Below, one piece after another: positions 33,287 through 63,132 of a DNA stretch of 64,000 nt. How positions within the stretch are numbered: position 1 is the stretch's first letter; each line of letters opens with the position of its first letter. The notes beneath the pieces were generated by a model that made no database searches, was not told where the DNA came from, and worked only from the letters and a program-made list of their open reading frames with translations. Origin of the DNA: Escherichia phage ES19. The stretch is taken from sequence record MN508616.2; one strand, given 5' to 3'. The position numbers were made by a program, and so were the translations under genes.

Positions 33287-33703
33287 TTAAATGTAAATAT
33301 TTTTGCCGTAATACTTATACCAGTGTGGCTTCATTAAAATTTTTTCATCGAGTCGTTGTTGACTCAACTTAATAGCTGATTTGCATGGATTATAATCATT
33401 TTTCCATTCTACTGGAATATCGCTGATGTCAGGAACTTCAGTATCTTTTATACTGAACCCGCGTTTTAAGCATTCCGTTATAATGTCCGATTGACGCTTT
33501 CGCAAAAATTCTAACTTATCGTAAAAGAAAGTAACATGACCAGAACCTAAAATAAATTTAGAAGATATTTTAAAATCTTTAACGCGCTTACCGTTTGCCA
33601 CATGCTTACGAACTATACCAAAAACACGCGGCAATTCACGGTATTCTGCGATTAAATGTTGATCAGCAAGTTCAGATACTAAAGTCAAATTAATACGAGT
33701 CAT
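33287..33703 (-). CDS. denV: endonuclease V (pyrimidine-dimer DNA glycosylase)
   Basis: 138 aa; [17 protein letters not shown] ... [10 protein letters not shown] matches T4 DenV as recalled. Confidence 0.9.
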
Positions 33704-33728
33704 TTTATCCCTCCAAGTAACTGTGAAT

Positions 33729-33757
33729 ATACTATCACAATTCTAGGAGAAAGTAAA
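33729..33757 (-). promoter_or_regulatory. sigma70-type early promoter for denV (TTTACT-17-TAGTAT)
   Basis: Lies in the 59-bp gap between the e stop and denV start. Confidence 0.45.
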
Positions 33758-33762
33758 TAGCT

Positions 33763-34293
<531 letters not shown>

Positions 34294-37165: not shown

Positions 37166-37266
37166 AGTATTTCCTTAGGTTAATTGAGATTTAAAATCCG
37201 TAGGAGTATAATACTCTATCGTCAAATTATAGGCTCATAATATCTCAATCATGAGCCTGCGTAAAC

Positions 37267-37530
37267 TTATTTCATATTATTGAAATATTCTTCTGCGATT
37301 TCGTCGTTATCATGGTAAACTTTAGAAGACAGTTTAACATAACCTTCTGCTGTGAACATATTAATCACAACTTTTACAGTATACCACTGACCGTCTTCAT
37401 TACCCATTACTGCGTAAGTTTCAAACATCGGATGATCAGGACCGATAACTTTAATATCATTCACTGTACGACCGAAATCTTCTGAAACGCATTTCATAAA
37501 GAAGTTGAACAGTTCGCCGTAATTATCCAT
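37267..37530 (-). CDS. hypothetical protein
   Basis: 87 aa from ATG at 37530 with RBS GGAGAATGAA; the track start 37650 lies upstream of the promoter. Confidence 0.45.
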   Translation of the reverse strand: MDNYGELFNFFMKCVSEDFGRTVNDIKVIGPDHPMFETYAVMGNEDGQWYTVKVVINMFTAEGYVKLSSKVYHDNDEIAEEYFNNMK

Positions 37531-37573
37531 TTCATTCTCCAAGTTGTTTTCTGTATCAGTAGTTGATAGTTGT

Positions 37574-37602
37574 ATAGTACCATGGAAGAACAGAGATGTA
37601 AA
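37574..37602 (-). promoter_or_regulatory. sigma70-type early promoter (TTTACA-17-TACTAT)
   Basis: Same conserved module as 22040..22068 and 23479..23507. Confidence 0.5.
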
Positions 37603-37732
37603 CAGTTTTGTGAAAAAATTTTTAGGGAATTCTAGGGCAGGGATGGGCAATTAAAGGATAGGATAATATATTATAAAGGGTATAAACTAAATGATGCCTA
37701 GAGAGGTCCAGAAAGGCCTAGATACCAAAAAG

Positions 37733-37751
37733 CCCTATCATTTAGATAGGG
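37733..37751 (-). terminator. stem-loop ccctatc-attta-gataggg with U-tract
   Basis: Preceded on plus by aaaaag; directly after the stop of 37760..38323. Confidence 0.5.
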
Positions 37752-37759
37752 ATTTAAAA

Positions 37760-38323
37760 TTATTTACCTAGTTTACTTATTATAGCTTCTGCAGCAGCTT
37801 TTAGCTTAGATGCAGTGTTAATACGATTTTTAATTTCAGTATACGCATCGCCAAGAACATCAAGGCTATCAGAATAAACACTTACACTATTGCGTTCGCT
37901 ATTTGAAATAGAACCTTTAGTTTTGCGGTCAAAATCGGTGTACACGTCTTGAAGATCGCGGGCTGCCTTCTTTGCATCATCCAATGCATCAAGAGCTTTA
38001 TTCAAAGCATTAACGTATTTTTTAGTGTCGAACATATTCTTAGAAATTTTAACAGGTGCGCGTTCAGGAGTAGCTAACACAGATTTAGGAACCTGAGCGC
38101 CAGATGCCAATTTCTTAGAAATTTTGAAAAATGCTTTATTGAATTTATTTTCTTGACTCATTGTAAAAGAACTATTATCGATGTTGTACATTTCAATAGC
38201 TTTAGCTTTCCACTTAAGAAAATCGCCGCGGTCTTTTGGGTCCAATTGGAAGAATACTTTAGTAAGATCTGCTTCAGATGGTAATTTTGCTGCTTCGGTT
38301 AAAAATTCGGCATAGGTTTTCAT
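37760..38323 (-). CDS. internal-protein-like protein with capsid-targeting-sequence-like N-terminus
   Basis: 187 aa; N-terminus MKTYAEFLTE-A resembles the T4 IP leader MKTYQEFIAE with a gp21-protease-type L-x-E site; possible late-promoter-like AATAAATA upstream. Confidence 0.45.
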   Translation of the reverse strand: MKTYAEFLTEAAKLPSEADLTKVFFQLDPKDRGDFLKWKAKAIEMYNIDNSSFTMSQENKFNKAFFKISKKLASGAQVPKSVLATPERAPVKISKNMFDTKKYVNALNKALDALDDAKKAARDLQDVYTDFDRKTKGSISNSERNSVSVYSDSLDVLGDAYTEIKNRINTASKLKAAAEAIISKLGK

Positions 38324-38417
38324 TTAAAATCCTTGAAATAATTTATCGGTTGGTTATTAATTATTTATTACTTTGTTACTATCCGTAACAGCGTTATCCG
38401 AGTGATTCAAACTAAAA

Positions 38418-38441
38418 AGCCCCAACCTTTCGGTCGGGGCT
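38418..38441 (-). terminator. rho-independent terminator (10-bp stem, GAAA loop, U-tract); copy A of a 31-bp direct repeat
   Basis: aaaaagccccaacctttcggtcggggctaag at 38414..38444, identical to 38971..39001. Confidence 0.6.
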
Positions 38442-38448
38442 AAGAATG

Positions 38449-38922
38449 TCATTTGATTTGTTTAGCAGACCAAATGCGGTCTTTAATAATTTTTTGGATG
38501 TCTTCAACATACTCAAGAGAGTGAACATGTGGATTATCTTTGAAACTATAAGCACGGGCTAACTTTTGGCCTTCGGTTTTGATTACTAAAAGCTCTTTAA
38601 GGATAGCTTCATATTTAGCGATAATTCCTTTAACGATATTTTTTTCTTGTGCCGCTTTAGGATCTGCTTTAGGAGCAGGTTTACCCGAAGCCTTTGCAAA
38701 AGCAGCGCCAGTAGCAACTAAACTTTTCCAGGCCATACTAACTGCATTTCCCGTAAATCCTTCCGCTTTCATGTCGCGTGCAAACTGGAATCGTGATTCA
38801 TCAGAAGCATCTTTATAGGAATATTTACCCGCGGCAATGGCAGCTTTTGCAACAGCTTGAATTTCGGTGCTAGATGCTTCATTTAACACCGCTTCATTTA
38901 AAAATTGAGTATATGATTTCAT
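38449..38922 (-). CDS. internal-protein-like protein with capsid-targeting-sequence-like N-terminus
   Basis: 157 aa from ATG at 38922 (MKSYTQFLNE-A...) with RBS AGGAAATAAG; the track ORF extends upstream through the promoter and terminator. Confidence 0.5.
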   Translation of the reverse strand: MKSYTQFLNEAVLNEASSTEIQAVAKAAIAAGKYSYKDASDESRFQFARDMKAEGFTGNAVSMAWKSLVATGAAFAKASGKPAPKADPKAAQEKNIVKGIIAKYEAILKELLVIKTEGQKLARAYSFKDNPHVHSLEYVEDIQKIIKDRIWSAKQIK

Positions 38923-38960
38923 CTTATTTCCTGTTTTAATTTGTAGATTTAATATACTAA

Positions 38961-38968
38961 TATTTATA
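38961..38968 (-). promoter_or_regulatory. T4 late promoter motif TATAAATA (minus strand)
   Basis: tatttata on plus, about 39 nt upstream of the ATG at 38922. Confidence 0.5.
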
Positions 38969-38974
38969 CCAAAA

Positions 38975-38998
38975 AGCCCCAACCTTTCGGTCGGGGCT
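38975..38998 (-). terminator. rho-independent terminator; copy B of the 31-bp direct repeat
   Basis: Identical to 38418..38441; lies downstream of the non-coding RNA-like region. Confidence 0.6.
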
Positions 38999-39000
38999 AA

Positions 39001-39300
39001 GCCTTGCGGCAACCTTGTCGGGGTTCCACCTGCTAAGGCAAGTGTTTGTACGAAACGCCGGGATTCGAACCCGGTTATTAAGTAGTTGACGCTACTCAAT
39101 ATTTTTAAAAGGCCATATCTCGACCATATCCGAACGTTCCGTCAAAAACGCTACTCGGCTTACGGCAAAGATATTTCCTCGAATCGATAATTCGGTGCGC
39201 CGTTTCTGCTGTGATAGTAAAGAGCCAGAACACAGTAAAACTGTGGGAGGAAACTATACTCCAGGGAACATCAGTCCGACGACTTACCGGTAGCGACCCG
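39001..39300 (-). ncRNA. candidate small stable RNA(s) with tRNA-like 3' domain
   Basis: About 300 nt without a credible ORF between ORF 39306..39656 and the terminator; GC-richer than surroundings; canonical T-arm CCGGG-TTCGAAT-CCCGG on minus (plus 39058..39074) with possible acceptor pairing CGGAACG/CGTTTCG but no full cloverleaf. T4 encodes two stable RNAs next to its tRNA cluster. Confidence 0.3.
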
Positions 39301-39305
39301 GTTTC

Positions 39306-39656
39306 TTAATATTCTTTTAAAGAATCAATATATTCACGGCGTTTACGCCACAAATCAATTGCTTCATACGCGGATTCAGCATTTCGAATTAGCCGGCATT
39401 TATGTAAAGACTTATGATTTTGATATTGTGTAGATAACGGAATTGTATCTAAAAGGTCTTTACGATCAAAATATTCGTAACCATCTAAACCAAATGAACG
39501 ATTTTTGAGAAATTGCCAATGACCATATTCGTTTTCGACATAAACATAATCTGCATGCTGATAAAGCAAATTAATTACACGTTCAGAAATAACAGTATCA
39601 TTATGATTAAAATAGAATGTTAAATCATGAACTACTAAATAAACATTACCTTTCAT
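39306..39656 (-). CDS. hypothetical protein co-transcribed with the tRNA cluster
   Basis: 116 aa; ATG at 39656 is 18 nt downstream of the tRNA-Arg 3' end with RBS GTGAGGAAA; no recognisable motif. Confidence 0.5.
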   Translation of the reverse strand: MKGNVYLVVHDLTFYFNHNDTVISERVINLLYQHADYVYVENEYGHWQFLKNRSFGLDGYEYFDRKDLLDTIPLSTQYQNHKSLHKCRLIRNAESAYEAIDLWRKRREYIDSLKEY

Positions 39657-39674
39657 ATTTTCCTCACTTATAAT

Positions 39675-39750
39675 TGGTCGAGGCAGTAGGGATCGAACCT
39701 ACGACCTAGGACTTAGAAGGTCCTTGCTCTTCCTTCTGAGCTATGCCCCG
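39675..39750 (-). tRNA. tRNA-Arg (anticodon UCU)
   Basis: Cloverleaf folded by hand: acceptor CGGGGCA/TGCCTCG, anticodon loop CTTCTAA, T-loop TTCGATC, encoded CCA. Confidence 0.8.
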
Positions 39751-39754
39751 TAAT

Positions 39755-39830
39755 TGGGGTGACCGATGGGAGTCGAACCCATGACTACGAGAATCACAAT
39801 CTCGAGTTCTACCAACTGAACTACGGCCAC
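39755..39830 (-). tRNA. tRNA-His (anticodon GUG)
   Basis: Acceptor GTGGCCG/CGGTCAC, anticodon loop TTGTGAT, T-loop TTCGACT, encoded CCA. Confidence 0.75.
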
Positions 39831-39924
39831 ATTAATACCTACTCCAACAATCAAGATGTCTTCACACGAAATTAAGAGAAGAGTGATCAGTTCAACCCCT
39901 ATAATCGCGTCAAGTAGATATTAA

Positions 39925-39940
39925 TGTGACAGTTGTCACA
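39925..39940 (-). repeat. perfect hairpin tgtgac-agtt-gtcaca in the spacer between tRNA-Asn and tRNA-His
   Basis: 6-bp inverted repeat read directly; candidate processing site. Confidence 0.4.
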
Positions 39941-39944
39941 AATT

Positions 39945-40019
39945 TGGCGGACGTGATAGGATTCGAACCTATAACCAATCGCTTAACAGGCGATCGCTCT
40001 GCCATTGAGCTACACATCC
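39945..40019 (-). tRNA. tRNA-Asn (anticodon GUU)
   Basis: Acceptor GGATGTG/CACGTCC, anticodon loop CTGTTAA, T-loop TTCGAAT, encoded CCA. Confidence 0.8.
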
Positions 40020-40023
40020 AAAT

Positions 40024-40110
40024 TGGTGGGGAGTGGTGGAGTCGAACCACCCGAGTCGCAATGACAATGGATTTACAGTCCACACCGCTACCTCTACGGG
40101 ATAACTCCCC
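40024..40110 (-). tRNA. tRNA-Tyr (anticodon GUA), long variable arm
   Basis: Acceptor GGGGAGT/ACTCCCC, anticodon loop CTGTAAA, T-loop TTCGACT, encoded CCA; 87 nt. Confidence 0.75.
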
Positions 40111-40119
40111 AAATTAATT

Positions 40120-40194
40120 TGGTGGCCCTGGGTGGAATTGAACCACCATCTGGCGATTATGAGTCGCTTGCTTGAACCTTCCAGCTACAGGGCC
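40120..40194 (-). tRNA. tRNA with CAU anticodon (Met, or Ile if C34 is modified)
   Basis: Acceptor GGCCCTG/CAGGGCC, anticodon loop CTCATAA, T-loop TTCAATT, encoded CCA. Confidence 0.7.
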
Positions 40195-40195
40195 T

Positions 40196-40271
40196 TGGTG
40201 CTGATTGACGGAATCGAACCGCCGACCTTCTCATTACAAGTGAGTTGCTCTACCTACTGAGCTAAATCAGC
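40196..40271 (-). tRNA. tRNA-Thr (anticodon UGU)
   Basis: Acceptor GCTGATT/AATCAGC, anticodon loop CTTGTAA, T-loop TTCGATT, encoded CCA. Confidence 0.8.
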
Positions 40272-40276
40272 AAAAC

Positions 40277-40366
40277 TGGCGGAGGCGATAGGATTTGAAC
40301 CTATGAGTCGCCGGAGCGACTGCCGGTTTTCAAGACCGGTGCATTAAACCACTCTGCCACGCCTCC
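40277..40366 (-). tRNA. tRNA-Ser (anticodon UGA), long variable arm
   Basis: Acceptor GGAGGCG/CGCCTCC, anticodon loop CTTGAAA, T-loop TTCAAAT, encoded CCA; 90 nt. Confidence 0.8.
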
Positions 40367-40368
40367 AG

Positions 40369-40442
40369 TCTCCGTGGCAGGATTTGAACCTACGACATTC
40401 TGCTCCCAAAGCAGACGCTCTACCAAACTGAGCTACACGGAG
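40369..40442 (-). tRNA. tRNA-Pro (anticodon UGG), CCA not encoded
   Basis: Acceptor CTCCGTG/CACGGAG, anticodon loop TTTGGGA, T-loop TTCAAAT; only 2 nt separate it from tRNA-Ser (dimeric precursor arrangement as in T4). Confidence 0.8.
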
Positions 40443-40452
40443 TAAATTAAAT

Positions 40453-40526
<74 letters not shown>

Positions 40527-40531
40527 AAATT

Positions 40532-40618
40532 TGGTGCGAGAAGTGGGACTCGAACCCACAAGGAAATCATTCCGCAGCATTTTAAGTGCTGTGCCTTTAC
40601 CAATTTGGCCATTCTCGC
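40532..40618 (-). tRNA. tRNA-Leu (anticodon UAA), long variable arm
   Basis: Acceptor GCGAGAA/TTCTCGC, anticodon loop CTTAAAA, T-loop TTCGAGT, encoded CCA. Confidence 0.8.
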
Positions 40619-40619
40619 G

Positions 40620-40692
40620 CTGGGAATAAAGGACTCGAACCTTTGCATCCTGGAATCAAAATCCAGTGCCTTACCAACTTGGCTAATTCCCA
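40620..40692 (-). tRNA. tRNA-Gln (anticodon UUG), CCA not encoded
   Basis: Acceptor TGGGAAT/ATTCCCA (U1-A72), anticodon loop TTTTGAT, T-loop TTCGAGT; 1 nt from tRNA-Leu (Gln-Leu dimeric precursor as in T4). Confidence 0.8.
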
Positions 40693-40693
40693 A

Positions 40694-40717
40694 TTATTAA
40701 CAAAGGCTCTTAAGCAA
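40694..40717 (-). promoter_or_regulatory. possible MotA-dependent middle promoter for the tRNA operon
   Basis: Minus strand TTGCTTAA (near MotA box) followed about 12 nt later by TAATAAT ending just upstream of the tRNA-Gln 5' end; weak motif match. Confidence 0.3.
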
Positions 40718-40789
40718 GAACCCTTGATGATAGAGGGTATTAATCAGTGCGATATGAGTTAATAATAACAAATAATTCTTAAAGCATAT

Positions 40790-41077
40790 TTACCATTTAT
40801 AATAATACATATTTACGATGCATTCAAGACCCAAAGGATTCTTGAAAATATCATATTCAAGAGGACCTTTTTCTGTTTCAATAAAGAAATCAAAATTTAC
40901 TGTATTAAATTTACGTTCTTCCTTCACTAATTTAACTTGAGAAGATGAACGGTCAATGTAAACCTTTTCAACTTCAAAACATGTTAAAATGCCATAATCA
41001 TCAATCAAAGCTTTAGCCGCGTCTTGATCATATTTATATCCATTTTCAATGGATGATACTTTCGCATAAAGAATCAT
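40790..41077 (-). CDS. hypothetical protein
   Basis: 95-aa ORF upstream of the tRNA cluster. Confidence 0.45.
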   Translation of the reverse strand: MILYAKVSSIENGYKYDQDAAKALIDDYGILTCFEVEKVYIDRSSSQVKLVKEERKFNTVNFDFFIETEKGPLEYDIFKNPLGLECIVNMYYYKW

Positions 41078-41663: not shown

Positions 41664-41691
41664 TTTATTCTCCTCAGTAGTAGATAGGGTA

Positions 41692-41720
41692 ATAGTATCA
41701 CTACCCTATCTAAAAGTAAA
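41692..41720 (-). promoter_or_regulatory. sigma70-type early promoter with -10 flanked by a perfect 9-bp inverted repeat
   Basis: TTTACT-17-TACTAT on minus; gatagggta (41683..41691) and taccctatc (41702..41710) bracket the -10. Confidence 0.45.
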
Positions 41721-41721
41721 C

Positions 41722-41955
41722 TTATTTTTTACGAAAAATTGATTTATTTTCTGCTGCCCATTTTTCAATAACTGCAGCAGGACCAGTAACAACAATTTTA
41801 TCACCGTAATCTTCTGCGGCGAGTTGACCGAAATTATCTAATGCATCACGAAGAACTCCATGAGGCATTTCACCCATTTTATCTTTCTTGCCAGTGTAAA
41901 TAAACTCAACTTTTACATCAGCAGTTTCAGCAATAAATTCTTGGTAAGTTTTCAT
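41722..41955 (-). CDS. internal-protein-like protein with canonical capsid targeting sequence
   Basis: 77 aa from ATG at 41955: MKTYQEFIAE-TADVK, identical to the T4 IP leader as recalled; the track ORF adds four upstream codons; rest of the protein does not look like T4 IPI as recalled. Confidence 0.55.
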   Translation of the reverse strand: MKTYQEFIAETADVKVEFIYTGKKDKMGEMPHGVLRDALDNFGQLAAEDYGDKIVVTGPAAVIEKWAAENKSIFRKK

Positions 41956-41989
41956 TTTGATTTCCATTTGGTTTTGTTTTGATAGGGTA

Positions 41990-42018
41990 ATAGTATCACA
42001 ACTAAAACCCTATGTAAA
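41990..42018 (-). promoter_or_regulatory. sigma70-type early promoter (TTTACA-17-TACTAT), degenerate copy of the inverted-repeat module
   Basis: gatagggta at 41981..41989 with only a partial right arm. Confidence 0.4.
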
Positions 42019-42031
42019 CAACTTTGTGAAA

Positions 42032-42289
42032 TTATTTTAAATCTTCTAATCGTTTCTTCATCTTAGAACCATTTTTAGCAATTTCTCCTGCATCGGAGCA
42101 TAATGCTAAAAGTGCTTTAACTTTAGTTTGGTCTCCTTTAAAAGATGAAGGATCGACCGCAGCAGCAAGTTCTTTAATACGAGAGAAAAGACGCTCAGCT
42201 TCAGCTAAAGCCATTCCAAGCTTTACTTCCATACCGTGGGAAGATTCAGTGATAGTAGTTTTTGTAGCAAACTCTTTGAAAGTTTTCAT
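42032..42289 (-). CDS. internal-protein-like protein with capsid-targeting-sequence-like N-terminus
   Basis: 85 aa; MKTFKEFATKTTITE-SS; RBS AGGAAAA; preceded by an inverted-repeat promoter. Confidence 0.45.
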   Translation of the reverse strand: MKTFKEFATKTTITESSHGMEVKLGMALAEAERLFSRIKELAAAVDPSSFKGDQTKVKALLALCSDAGEIAKNGSKMKKRLEDLK

Positions 42290-42320
42290 TTTTATTTTCC
42301 TAATTAATTTTGATGAGGTA

Positions 42321-42349
42321 ATAGTATCACTACCTCATCAGTATGTAAA
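42321..42349 (-). promoter_or_regulatory. sigma70-type early promoter with -10 flanked by a perfect 9-bp inverted repeat
   Basis: gatgaggta (42312..42320) - atagtatcac - tacctcatc (42331..42339); -35 tgtaaa at 42344..42349. Confidence 0.45.
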
Positions 42350-42362
42350 CAACTTTGTGAAA

Positions 42363-43047
<685 letters not shown>

Positions 43048-61430: not shown

Positions 61431-63132
<1,702 letters not shown>

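Follow-up and report, generated by a model that had tools for sequence, protein, structure and literature searches.

What does a gene encode that lies between two identical terminators in a T4-like phage, and how has it come to be present in some phages and missing from others? The locus in question occupies positions 38414–39001 of a 64,000-nucleotide (nt) stretch of Escherichia phage ES19 (sequence record MN508616.2), hereafter the window, and holds one gene for a basic protein of 157 amino acids (aa) that starts like the internal proteins (Ips) of T4. The window phage is a Tequatrovirus; over 38300–39100, ES21 is 100% identical to the window, and many others are 99.9% identical, including KarlGJung (Bas37 of the BASEL collection). 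On balance, we favor the explanation that the 157-aa protein is a late-expressed, injected Ip encoded in a terminator-delimited module, with a host defense as its target by analogy. The protein is annotated merely as a "hypothetical protein" in about 470 deposited genomes, and a literature search by accession numbers and leader sequence returned no match.

The open reading frame (ORF) called in the initial annotation, which left the strand unstated, was found on the minus strand at 38449..38922. It encodes 157 aa, opens with MKSYTQFLNE-A (start MKSYTQFLNEAVLNEA), and corresponds to bas37_0244 of Bas37 and g140 of phage fD1. A Shine-Dalgarno sequence, AGGA (38929..38932, minus strand), can be read 7 nt ahead of the ATG. 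The first ten codons (38893..38922, minus strand) had been likened to the capsid targeting sequence (CTS) of T4 internal proteins, MKTYQEFIAE, and the criteria for judging this likeness come from the published analysis of IPIII. In truncation experiments, residues 1–10 of IPIII proved sufficient for head incorporation, and single positions were probed by amber-suppressor substitutions. Positions 4 and 7 are the main determinants of targeting, processing relies on positions 8 and 10, and the protease gp21 cuts after L/I-x-E (PMC9026906). The leader of the 157-aa protein retains Tyr4 and Phe7 for targeting and Leu8 and Glu10 for processing, that is, all of the mutagenesis-critical positions, and is a genuine CTS variant. 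Two Glu-Ala bonds match the gp21 motif, LNE|A at residues 8–11 and LNE|A at residues 13–16. The strict N-terminal pattern MKxYxxFxxE occurs on just three ORFs of the 64-kb window, each in an internal-protein-type locus, and a leader of the F-L-x-E-A type is conserved in the homologs of Mosigvirus, Klebsiella phages, and Yersinia phages.

Is the protein found in phage particles? In the published proteome of fD1, g140, which is 98% identical to the window protein, was detected using liquid chromatography–tandem mass spectrometry (LC-MS/MS) in ultracentrifuge-purified virions, and the products of its neighbors g138 and g139 (e.8) were undetected. The paper on fPS-2/65/90 contains no proteome. The identical gene bas37_0244 is non-essential, with insertions at 29 of its 34 TA sites in the HIDEN-SEQ transposon study of Bas37; T4 ipI, ipII, and ipIII are likewise non-essential by this method. 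Since the leader, the virion detection of the ortholog, and the non-essentiality combine, the protein is likely an unnamed member of the known T-even Ip class and not a novel kind of system. We regard it as highly probable that the 157-aa protein is a CTS-packaged internal protein.

How is the gene delimited? The perfect 31-bp direct repeat described initially is present in two identical copies, and the identity breaks off exactly at each end. The upstream copy of this element, terminator T1 (CTTAGCCCCGACCGAAAGGTTGGGGCTTTTT, 38971..39001, minus strand), ends the tRNA/rnaC operon and exists as an identical single copy in T4, T2, T6, and PST, while the downstream copy (38414..38444, minus strand) ends the 157-aa gene. 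These two are the only copies in the window with up to 3 mismatches allowed, against a shuffle expectation of 0.00. On the minus strand, T1 folds into a hairpin whose 10-bp stem is closed by a GAAA loop and followed by a U5 tail (−20.4 and −21.6 kcal/mol for the two copies; z = −3.8 to −4.8), and 0 of 200 shuffles fold equally well. The hairpin and U-run are those of a Rho-independent terminator, as had been proposed, and the T4 record X03016 annotates the element as a "potential terminator". Upstream of it lies the homolog of T4 rnaC (species 1 RNA; 39049..39187, minus strand), which aligns without gaps to T4 NC_000866 70908–71046 at a constant coordinate offset. As the final gene of the tRNA operon, rnaC is terminated by the upstream 31-nt repeat copy.

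The gene's own late promoter, another feature of the initial annotation, corresponds to the predicted motif TATAAATA at 38961–38968 (minus strand), 2 nt past the T-run of T1 and 39 nt upstream of the ATG. The motif is conserved at this position in wV7, teqhal, phiD1, fPS-90, and Bas37, and the depositors of fPS-90 likewise annotate the site as a predicted late promoter. No sigma-70-like site was found on the minus strand between 38923 and 39001.

Does the module come and go among related phages? T4 and the window are identical through rnaC and the terminator as far as ...GGGGCTTTTTGGTAT. Past this point, T4 runs straight into the e.8 upstream region (CTAAGCC...), whereas the window continues with AAATATTAG..., the 157-aa gene, the second T1 copy, a different leader (AGTTTGAATC...) and a 187-aa gene; after this gene comes a third terminator, and T4-like sequence (CTAGGCC...) then resumes. 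Both genes are precisely missing from T4, and the outer junctions have GGGCTTTTTGGTAT in common. Four states of the locus were found. T4, T2, T6, and PST are empty, with one terminator and no gene. T4_ev151 and RB69 carry the 187-aa gene only (terminator, AGTTTGAATC, gene). wV7, phiD1, and teqhal carry the 157-aa gene only (terminator, GGTATAAATA, gene, terminator copy, GGTATCTAGG), and the window, fPS-90, and Bas37 carry both. In these 12 genomes, all junctions lie inside the terminator/GGTAT segment, at the terminator T-run. The flanking repeat is 31 nt and perfect in the window and 36 nt in the genomes with only the 157-aa gene.

Junction searches, with queries built so that a one-sided match covers <80% of the query, assigned 128 records to the two-gene state, about 354 to the 157-aa-only state, about 37 to the 187-aa-only state (41 less four two-piece artefacts), and at most 83 to the empty state; these counts are approximate, as nearby pieces are joined by the search tool and divergent copies are lost with short queries. 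Independent protein searches agree: full-length copies number 469 for the 157-aa gene and 164 for the 187-aa gene, and the whole two-gene segment is covered in 127 records. Of the roughly 600 phage records classifiable at the locus, roughly 80% carry the 157-aa gene. The proposed cassette of promoter, gene, and terminator thus stands as a real module, an indel relative to T4, T2, and T6 with gene gain or loss at the terminator T-run. It is not an ortholog kept in all T-even phages without repeat polymorphism, the sites of T4, T2, T6, and PST being empty.

In which direction has the module moved? The Mosigvirus SHSML-52-1 has an ortholog of 154 aa, with about 75% identity, behind the same rnaC terminator, and downstream of it a terminator copy followed by TTTTGGTATCTAGGG. 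Klebsiella Jiaodavirus phages carry a homolog of the N-terminal domain downstream of tRNA genes. Given the Mosigvirus synteny and the Jiaodavirus homolog, the module is old. Both Mosigvirus stem-loops have CCCCTTCC where Tequatrovirus has CCCCGACC. Since this variant gives rise to two T-T mismatches in the stem, it is not favored by selection for hairpin stability, and its presence in both copies points to concerted evolution via recombination or conversion. The initial annotation had the module acquired by recombination between terminator copies. The repeat junctions fit such recombination, but acquisition is probably the wrong direction, considering the roughly 80% carriage and the Mosigvirus synteny. 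More likely, the gene is ancestral and was lost from T4, and the empty site of T4, T2, and T6 reflects deletion between repeats; reinsertion by the reverse reaction in co-infection is possible.

The module ends suggest how this could occur. Each terminator has GGGCTTTTT, and the first module closes with an exact copy of the rnaC terminator, so that homologous recombination between the short repeats would delete or reinsert whole insulated modules with the neighbors unharmed. In our judgment, modules are likely gained and lost by way of the terminator repeats.

What kind of protein does the module carry? The 157-aa gene is under strong purifying selection; its ratio of nonsynonymous to synonymous substitution rates (dN/dS) comes to 0.05 in comparison with wV7 and phiD1 and to 0.09 in comparison with Mosigvirus, and the gene is therefore functional. 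The mature protein has a computed isoelectric point (pI) of 9.5–9.6 and a computed mass of 15.5–16 kDa. Profile and structure searches, which had been suggested as a check, recovered only phrog_2280, to which PHROG assigns no function, and the protein's own relatives or ortholog. No family was found in Pfam and no match in PADLOC, and the sequence-profile search of the PDB gave only a spurious designer-PPR match. The AlphaFold model has six helices (mean predicted local distance difference test score, 73), in which an N-terminal helical domain (about residues 20–78) is joined by a low-confidence linker of Lys, Pro, and Ala to a helical hairpin at the C-terminus. Word-indexed searching of 5.8 billion proteins yielded 13 proteins, as did a HMMER profile search of 1.84 billion representatives, and all those with a source name come from T4-like phages, to which the family is apparently confined. 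Between Tequatrovirus and Mosigvirus, the C-terminal half hardly varies, while Klebsiella and Yersinia phages retain the N-terminal domain with other C-termini; the two halves evolve separately.

An A7 run lies in the linker region of the gene (CAAGAAAAAAATATC; about 38633–38645 of the window, T7 on the plus strand). The teqhal copy is frameshifted at this run and annotated as 97 aa, and several other records (OE5505, ECO07P3, and ph0021) give two-piece tblastn matches at about 100% identity. Such breaks may represent either a homopolymer sequencing error or a recurrent inactivation hotspot.

For the 157-aa protein, we infer late transcription, cleavage by gp21, injection, and an anti-defense target. 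The gene would be transcribed late from the TATAAATA promoter directly behind the tRNA-operon terminator, and the precursor would enter the prohead core by its 10-residue CTS. The prohead protease gp21 would then cut off the leader after Glu10 and/or Glu15. The basic mature protein would remain with the DNA in the head and be injected into the next host, where it would most likely neutralize one specific host defense, by analogy a modification-dependent (type IV) restriction enzyme. On hosts lacking the target, the gene would be dispensable. The analogy comes from characterized Ips. Ip1, Ip2, and Ip3 are inhibitors of GmrSD type IV restriction enzymes, each acting on a different one; at least ten Ips are reported from related phages, and Ip4–10 gave no reproducible hits against the GmrSD variants tested (Silas et al. 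2025, PMC12373910). Furthermore, the CTS-bearing Bas37_0260 inhibits McrBC (HIDEN-SEQ preprint, 10.1101/2025.11.20.689424). By this analogy, the 157-aa protein may be a specific anti-defense inhibitor, a role that we propose tentatively. It showed no similarity beyond the leader to T4 IPII or IPIII and no PDB match in sequence or fold; such homology is non-discriminating, as the known Ips are mutually unrelated too.

The packaged, anti-defense reading has to be weighed against two others. The protein might be no Ip at all, its CTS-like start a recombination leftover between conserved ip 5′ ends and its site of action the cytoplasm late in infection. A DNA repeat common to the ip genes of the window (families D4 and D6) does comprise the leader and ribosome-binding region, which makes passive inheritance possible, and the leader matches MKTYQEFIAE at only 5 of 10 residues. 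On the other hand, homologs with about 75% identity and the more divergent one from Yersinia all keep the critical Tyr4, Phe7, Leu8, and Glu10, purified virions gave a signal for the ortholog and none for the products of adjacent genes, and a late promoter suits a head component; we consider such a leftover very improbable. The main rival to the anti-defense role accepts packaging but dispenses with a host target, making the protein a generic, interchangeable DNA-associated filler, either in the prohead core or in the DNA-filled head, that serves charge neutralization or the physics of packaging and ejection. The basic mature protein (pI about 9.5), the simple, all-helical predicted structure with its low-confidence Lys/Pro/Ala-rich linker, and the lack of a phenotype on the tested hosts would suit a filler. 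So would the absence of ipII and ipIII between e and denV in the window, which means that the head must be filled by others, and related basic CTS proteins "may substitute" for the T4 Ips (PMC9026906). However, each Ip with an assigned function (Ip1, Ip2, Ip3, and Bas37_0260) is a specific restriction inhibitor, strong selection over the whole sequence and two separately conserved domains exceed what a filler needs, and many phages dispense with the protein. A mere filler therefore appears rather unlikely to us.

The recombination part of our explanation has its own competitor, in which the identical terminators are irrelevant to gene flow and are kept for termination, the differences between genomes being ordinary deletions or exchanges through long flanks. 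This would fit the same locus in every genome and its synteny in another genus, the efficient exchange known between co-infecting T-even phages via kilobase-long flanks, and the 1–3 nt by which the terminator copies of wV7 and phiD1 differ. Yet the junctions fall within the terminator-plus-GGTAT segment in 12 of 12 genomes, and the forms with only the 187-aa or only the 157-aa gene are exactly those predicted from recombination between T1 copies or GGGCTTTTT tails. The stem-weakening variant in both Mosigvirus copies is not expected from selection for termination alone, and repeats of similar size yield deletions and mini-circles in T4-type phages (PMC2839356). We judge irrelevance of the terminators to be improbable.

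Some observations count against the late-expressed, injected Ip in a terminator-delimited module. Since 113 of 277 fD1 products were called particle-associated, many of them non-structural, the specificity of that proteome is low, and the detection of g140 gives modest support only. The TATAAATA octamer is not enriched in the AT-rich window (12 observed, 11.1 expected), so the weight of the promoter motif rests on its position and conservation; Mosigvirus has AATAAATA at this site. The 157-aa gene occupies one place per record and never another locus, and "mobile" therefore means gain and loss in place only. Foldseek searches of the PDB and BFVD returned no match below E = 1 except the protein's own ortholog, leaving the fold uninformative. 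Relative to K-12, bas37_0244 mutants had no fitness change on the clinical hosts CFT073 (log2 fold change, −0.11) and CFE299 (−0.30; adjusted p = 1 for both), and the conditionally essential genes that the HIDEN-SEQ study highlights for CFE303, CFE331, CFE336, and Mokosh do not include bas37_0244; these phenotype data cover only a handful of hosts.

A bolder extension of our explanation is speculative, and we consider it somewhat unlikely. The region behind the tRNA-operon terminator may be a third, undescribed "ip island" in which late modules are swapped via GGGCTTTTT(GGTAT) repeats, with the 157-aa protein inhibiting a defense beyond the assigned GmrSD variants and McrBC. If true, the island would be a late-gene counterpart of the promoter and stem-loop cassettes of T4-type phages compared below, and the empty sites of T2, T4, and T6 would explain why the family has gone unstudied despite about 80% carriage among classified records. 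Since all solved Ips (Ip1, Ip2, Ip3, and Ip6/Bas37_0260) inhibit modification-dependent restriction, orphan CTS-bearing proteins are among the top-priority anti-defense candidates in therapeutic T4-like phages. A tractable phage is at hand in Bas37, for which a transposon library exists.

The second gene of the two-gene state (37760..38323, minus strand; bas37_0243) encodes the 187-aa protein with the leader MKTYAEFLTE|A. Its terminator T2 (37723..37751, minus strand) consists of CCCTATCTAAATGATAGGGCTTTTT followed by GGTAT (CCCTATCTAAATGATAGGGCTTTTTGGTAT) and has GGGCTTTTTGGTAT in common with T1; T4-like sequence resumes after it. The 157-aa and 187-aa genes were considered as tandem paralogs, since both products match phrog_2280 (E = 1e-53 to 1e-60), but pairwise BLAST and hhalign align the first ~12 residues only. 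We treat the two, from these alignments, as unrelated proteins with a common leader. HIDEN-SEQ classes bas37_0243 as "Essential": insertions were found at 1 of its 48 TA sites, and reads numbered about 0 in all libraries. This call contrasts with the absence of the gene from T4, T2, T6, and about three quarters of related genomes and with the non-essential T4 ipI–III, a contrast on which the preprint is silent. A deletion in the laboratory stock, toxic truncated products, or a real dependence may be the cause.

The window holds further internal-protein genes. A 77-aa ORF at 41722–41955 (minus strand; MKTYQEFIAETADV...) is 100% identical to the McrBC inhibitor Bas37_0260. The T6 annotation of the corresponding gene is Ip6, the correspondence being drawn from position and length without alignment. 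At 42032–42289 (minus strand), an 85-aa ORF starts with MKTFKEFATK, a degenerate leader in which position 4 is Phe and position 10 is not Glu; by position and length, its counterparts are Ip5 in T6 and IpV in PST, and the Bas37 annotation is ipI. The lysozyme gene e (33763–34257) is directly followed by denV (33287–33703; 33287–34257 in all, minus strand), and the ipIII and ipII genes that intervene in T4 are missing. The CTS proteins of the window phage are therefore the 157-aa, 187-aa, Ip6-like, and Ip5-like proteins only. Each of the four ip-type genes has at its 5′ end (38288–38333, 38891–38932, 41920–41965, and 42254–42297) a copy of a dispersed repeat of about 42 nt (64–77% identical), which is the DNA of the CTS and ribosome-binding region and could be a second recombination joint in addition to the terminators.

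Two other assignments of the 157-aa protein were considered and rejected. It is not the PST "IpIV", which has an equal length of 157 aa and the leader MKTYQEFITE, the sequences being unrelated. Nor is it part of a mutually exclusive replacement of IPIII; Shfl2, EcNP1, and phiE142 have both IPIII and the 187-aa gene. The PST ipIV gene (62426–62899) has a counterpart of equal length at about the same position in T2 (AP018813, 62429–62902), a 474-nt ORF beside the lysozyme gene that is labeled "valyl tRNA synthetase modifier" and, judged without alignment, looks mis-annotated.

The genes of the locus all lie on the minus strand in T4 order, namely the tRNA cluster, rnaD/rnaC, e.8 to e.1, and e. 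An Rfam search over 37200–40800 found tRNAs only. T4 has 8 tRNA genes and the window 11, among them those for His, Asn, Tyr, and Met. A 116-aa RB69ORF150c-like ORF (39306–39656, minus strand) is located between tRNA-Arg and rnaD (region also 39675–40692), and the T4 homing endonuclease gene segB is missing from its position adjacent to tRNA-Arg.

How does the locus compare with known systems? Like the T4 internal proteins, the 157-aa protein has a 10-residue CTS ending in L/I-x-E|A, is small and basic, is encoded by a non-essential accessory gene whose presence varies among T-even phages, and has been detected in virions, here via its ortholog. Beyond the leader, however, it has no sequence or fold similarity to IPII and IPIII, the two compared. 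Its locus lies right after the rnaC terminator and not in the e–denV or 57B–trna.4 interval, and its leader is MKSYTQFLNE with a second LNE|A site instead of MKTYQEFIAE, its packaging and cleavage being putative. Ip6/Bas37_0260 is encoded in the same type of phage and likewise has only the leader in common with other Ips; its example shows that Ips absent from T4 can hit defenses besides GmrSD. The mature sequences of the two proteins are unrelated, and in K-12 BW25113 the fitness of Bas37_0260 mutants drops, whereas that of bas37_0244 mutants does not (mean, 472 reads per TA site). The upstream copy of T1 is the same element as the terminator of the T4 tRNA/rnaC operon; here it is duplicated, so that the second copy terminates the inserted gene.

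The closest precedent for the module is the PeSL, the early promoter plus stem-loop cassette of T4-type phages (Arbiol 2010; Comeau 2014), whose recombination removes or adds insulated units and gives mini-circles (PMC2839356). Classical examples seem to be present at the ipI locus of the window itself, where the Ip5 and Ip6 genes are flanked by a ~70-nt element that occurs three times (41679–41749, 41977–42047, and 42308–42378; family D2; 61–86% identical). Read on the minus strand, this element joins an early-promoter-like sequence (TTTACA...TACTAT) to a TAGGGT...ACCCTA stem-loop. In both systems, short conserved promoter/terminator repeats with GGGG...CCCC stems flank accessory ORFs, transcriptionally insulated modules in hyperplastic regions are lost or gained by recombination between the repeats, as is likely here, and natural indels among close relatives have crossovers inside the repeats, here in four configurations. 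The differences lie in the promoter, which is of the sigma-70-type early class in PeSLs and a late TATAAATA motif here, and in the repeat unit, which at this locus is the tRNA-operon terminator itself (31–36 nt), with the late promoter abutting the upstream copy. Late promoters are mentioned in neither of the two PeSL papers, and mini-circles are reported for PeSLs. On this comparison, the module resembles a PeSL in mechanism but is not a PeSL in the strict sense. The finding fills in a known picture and overturns nothing; the locus is a clean natural case of module gain and loss via terminator repeats and carries the PeSL idea over to late genes.

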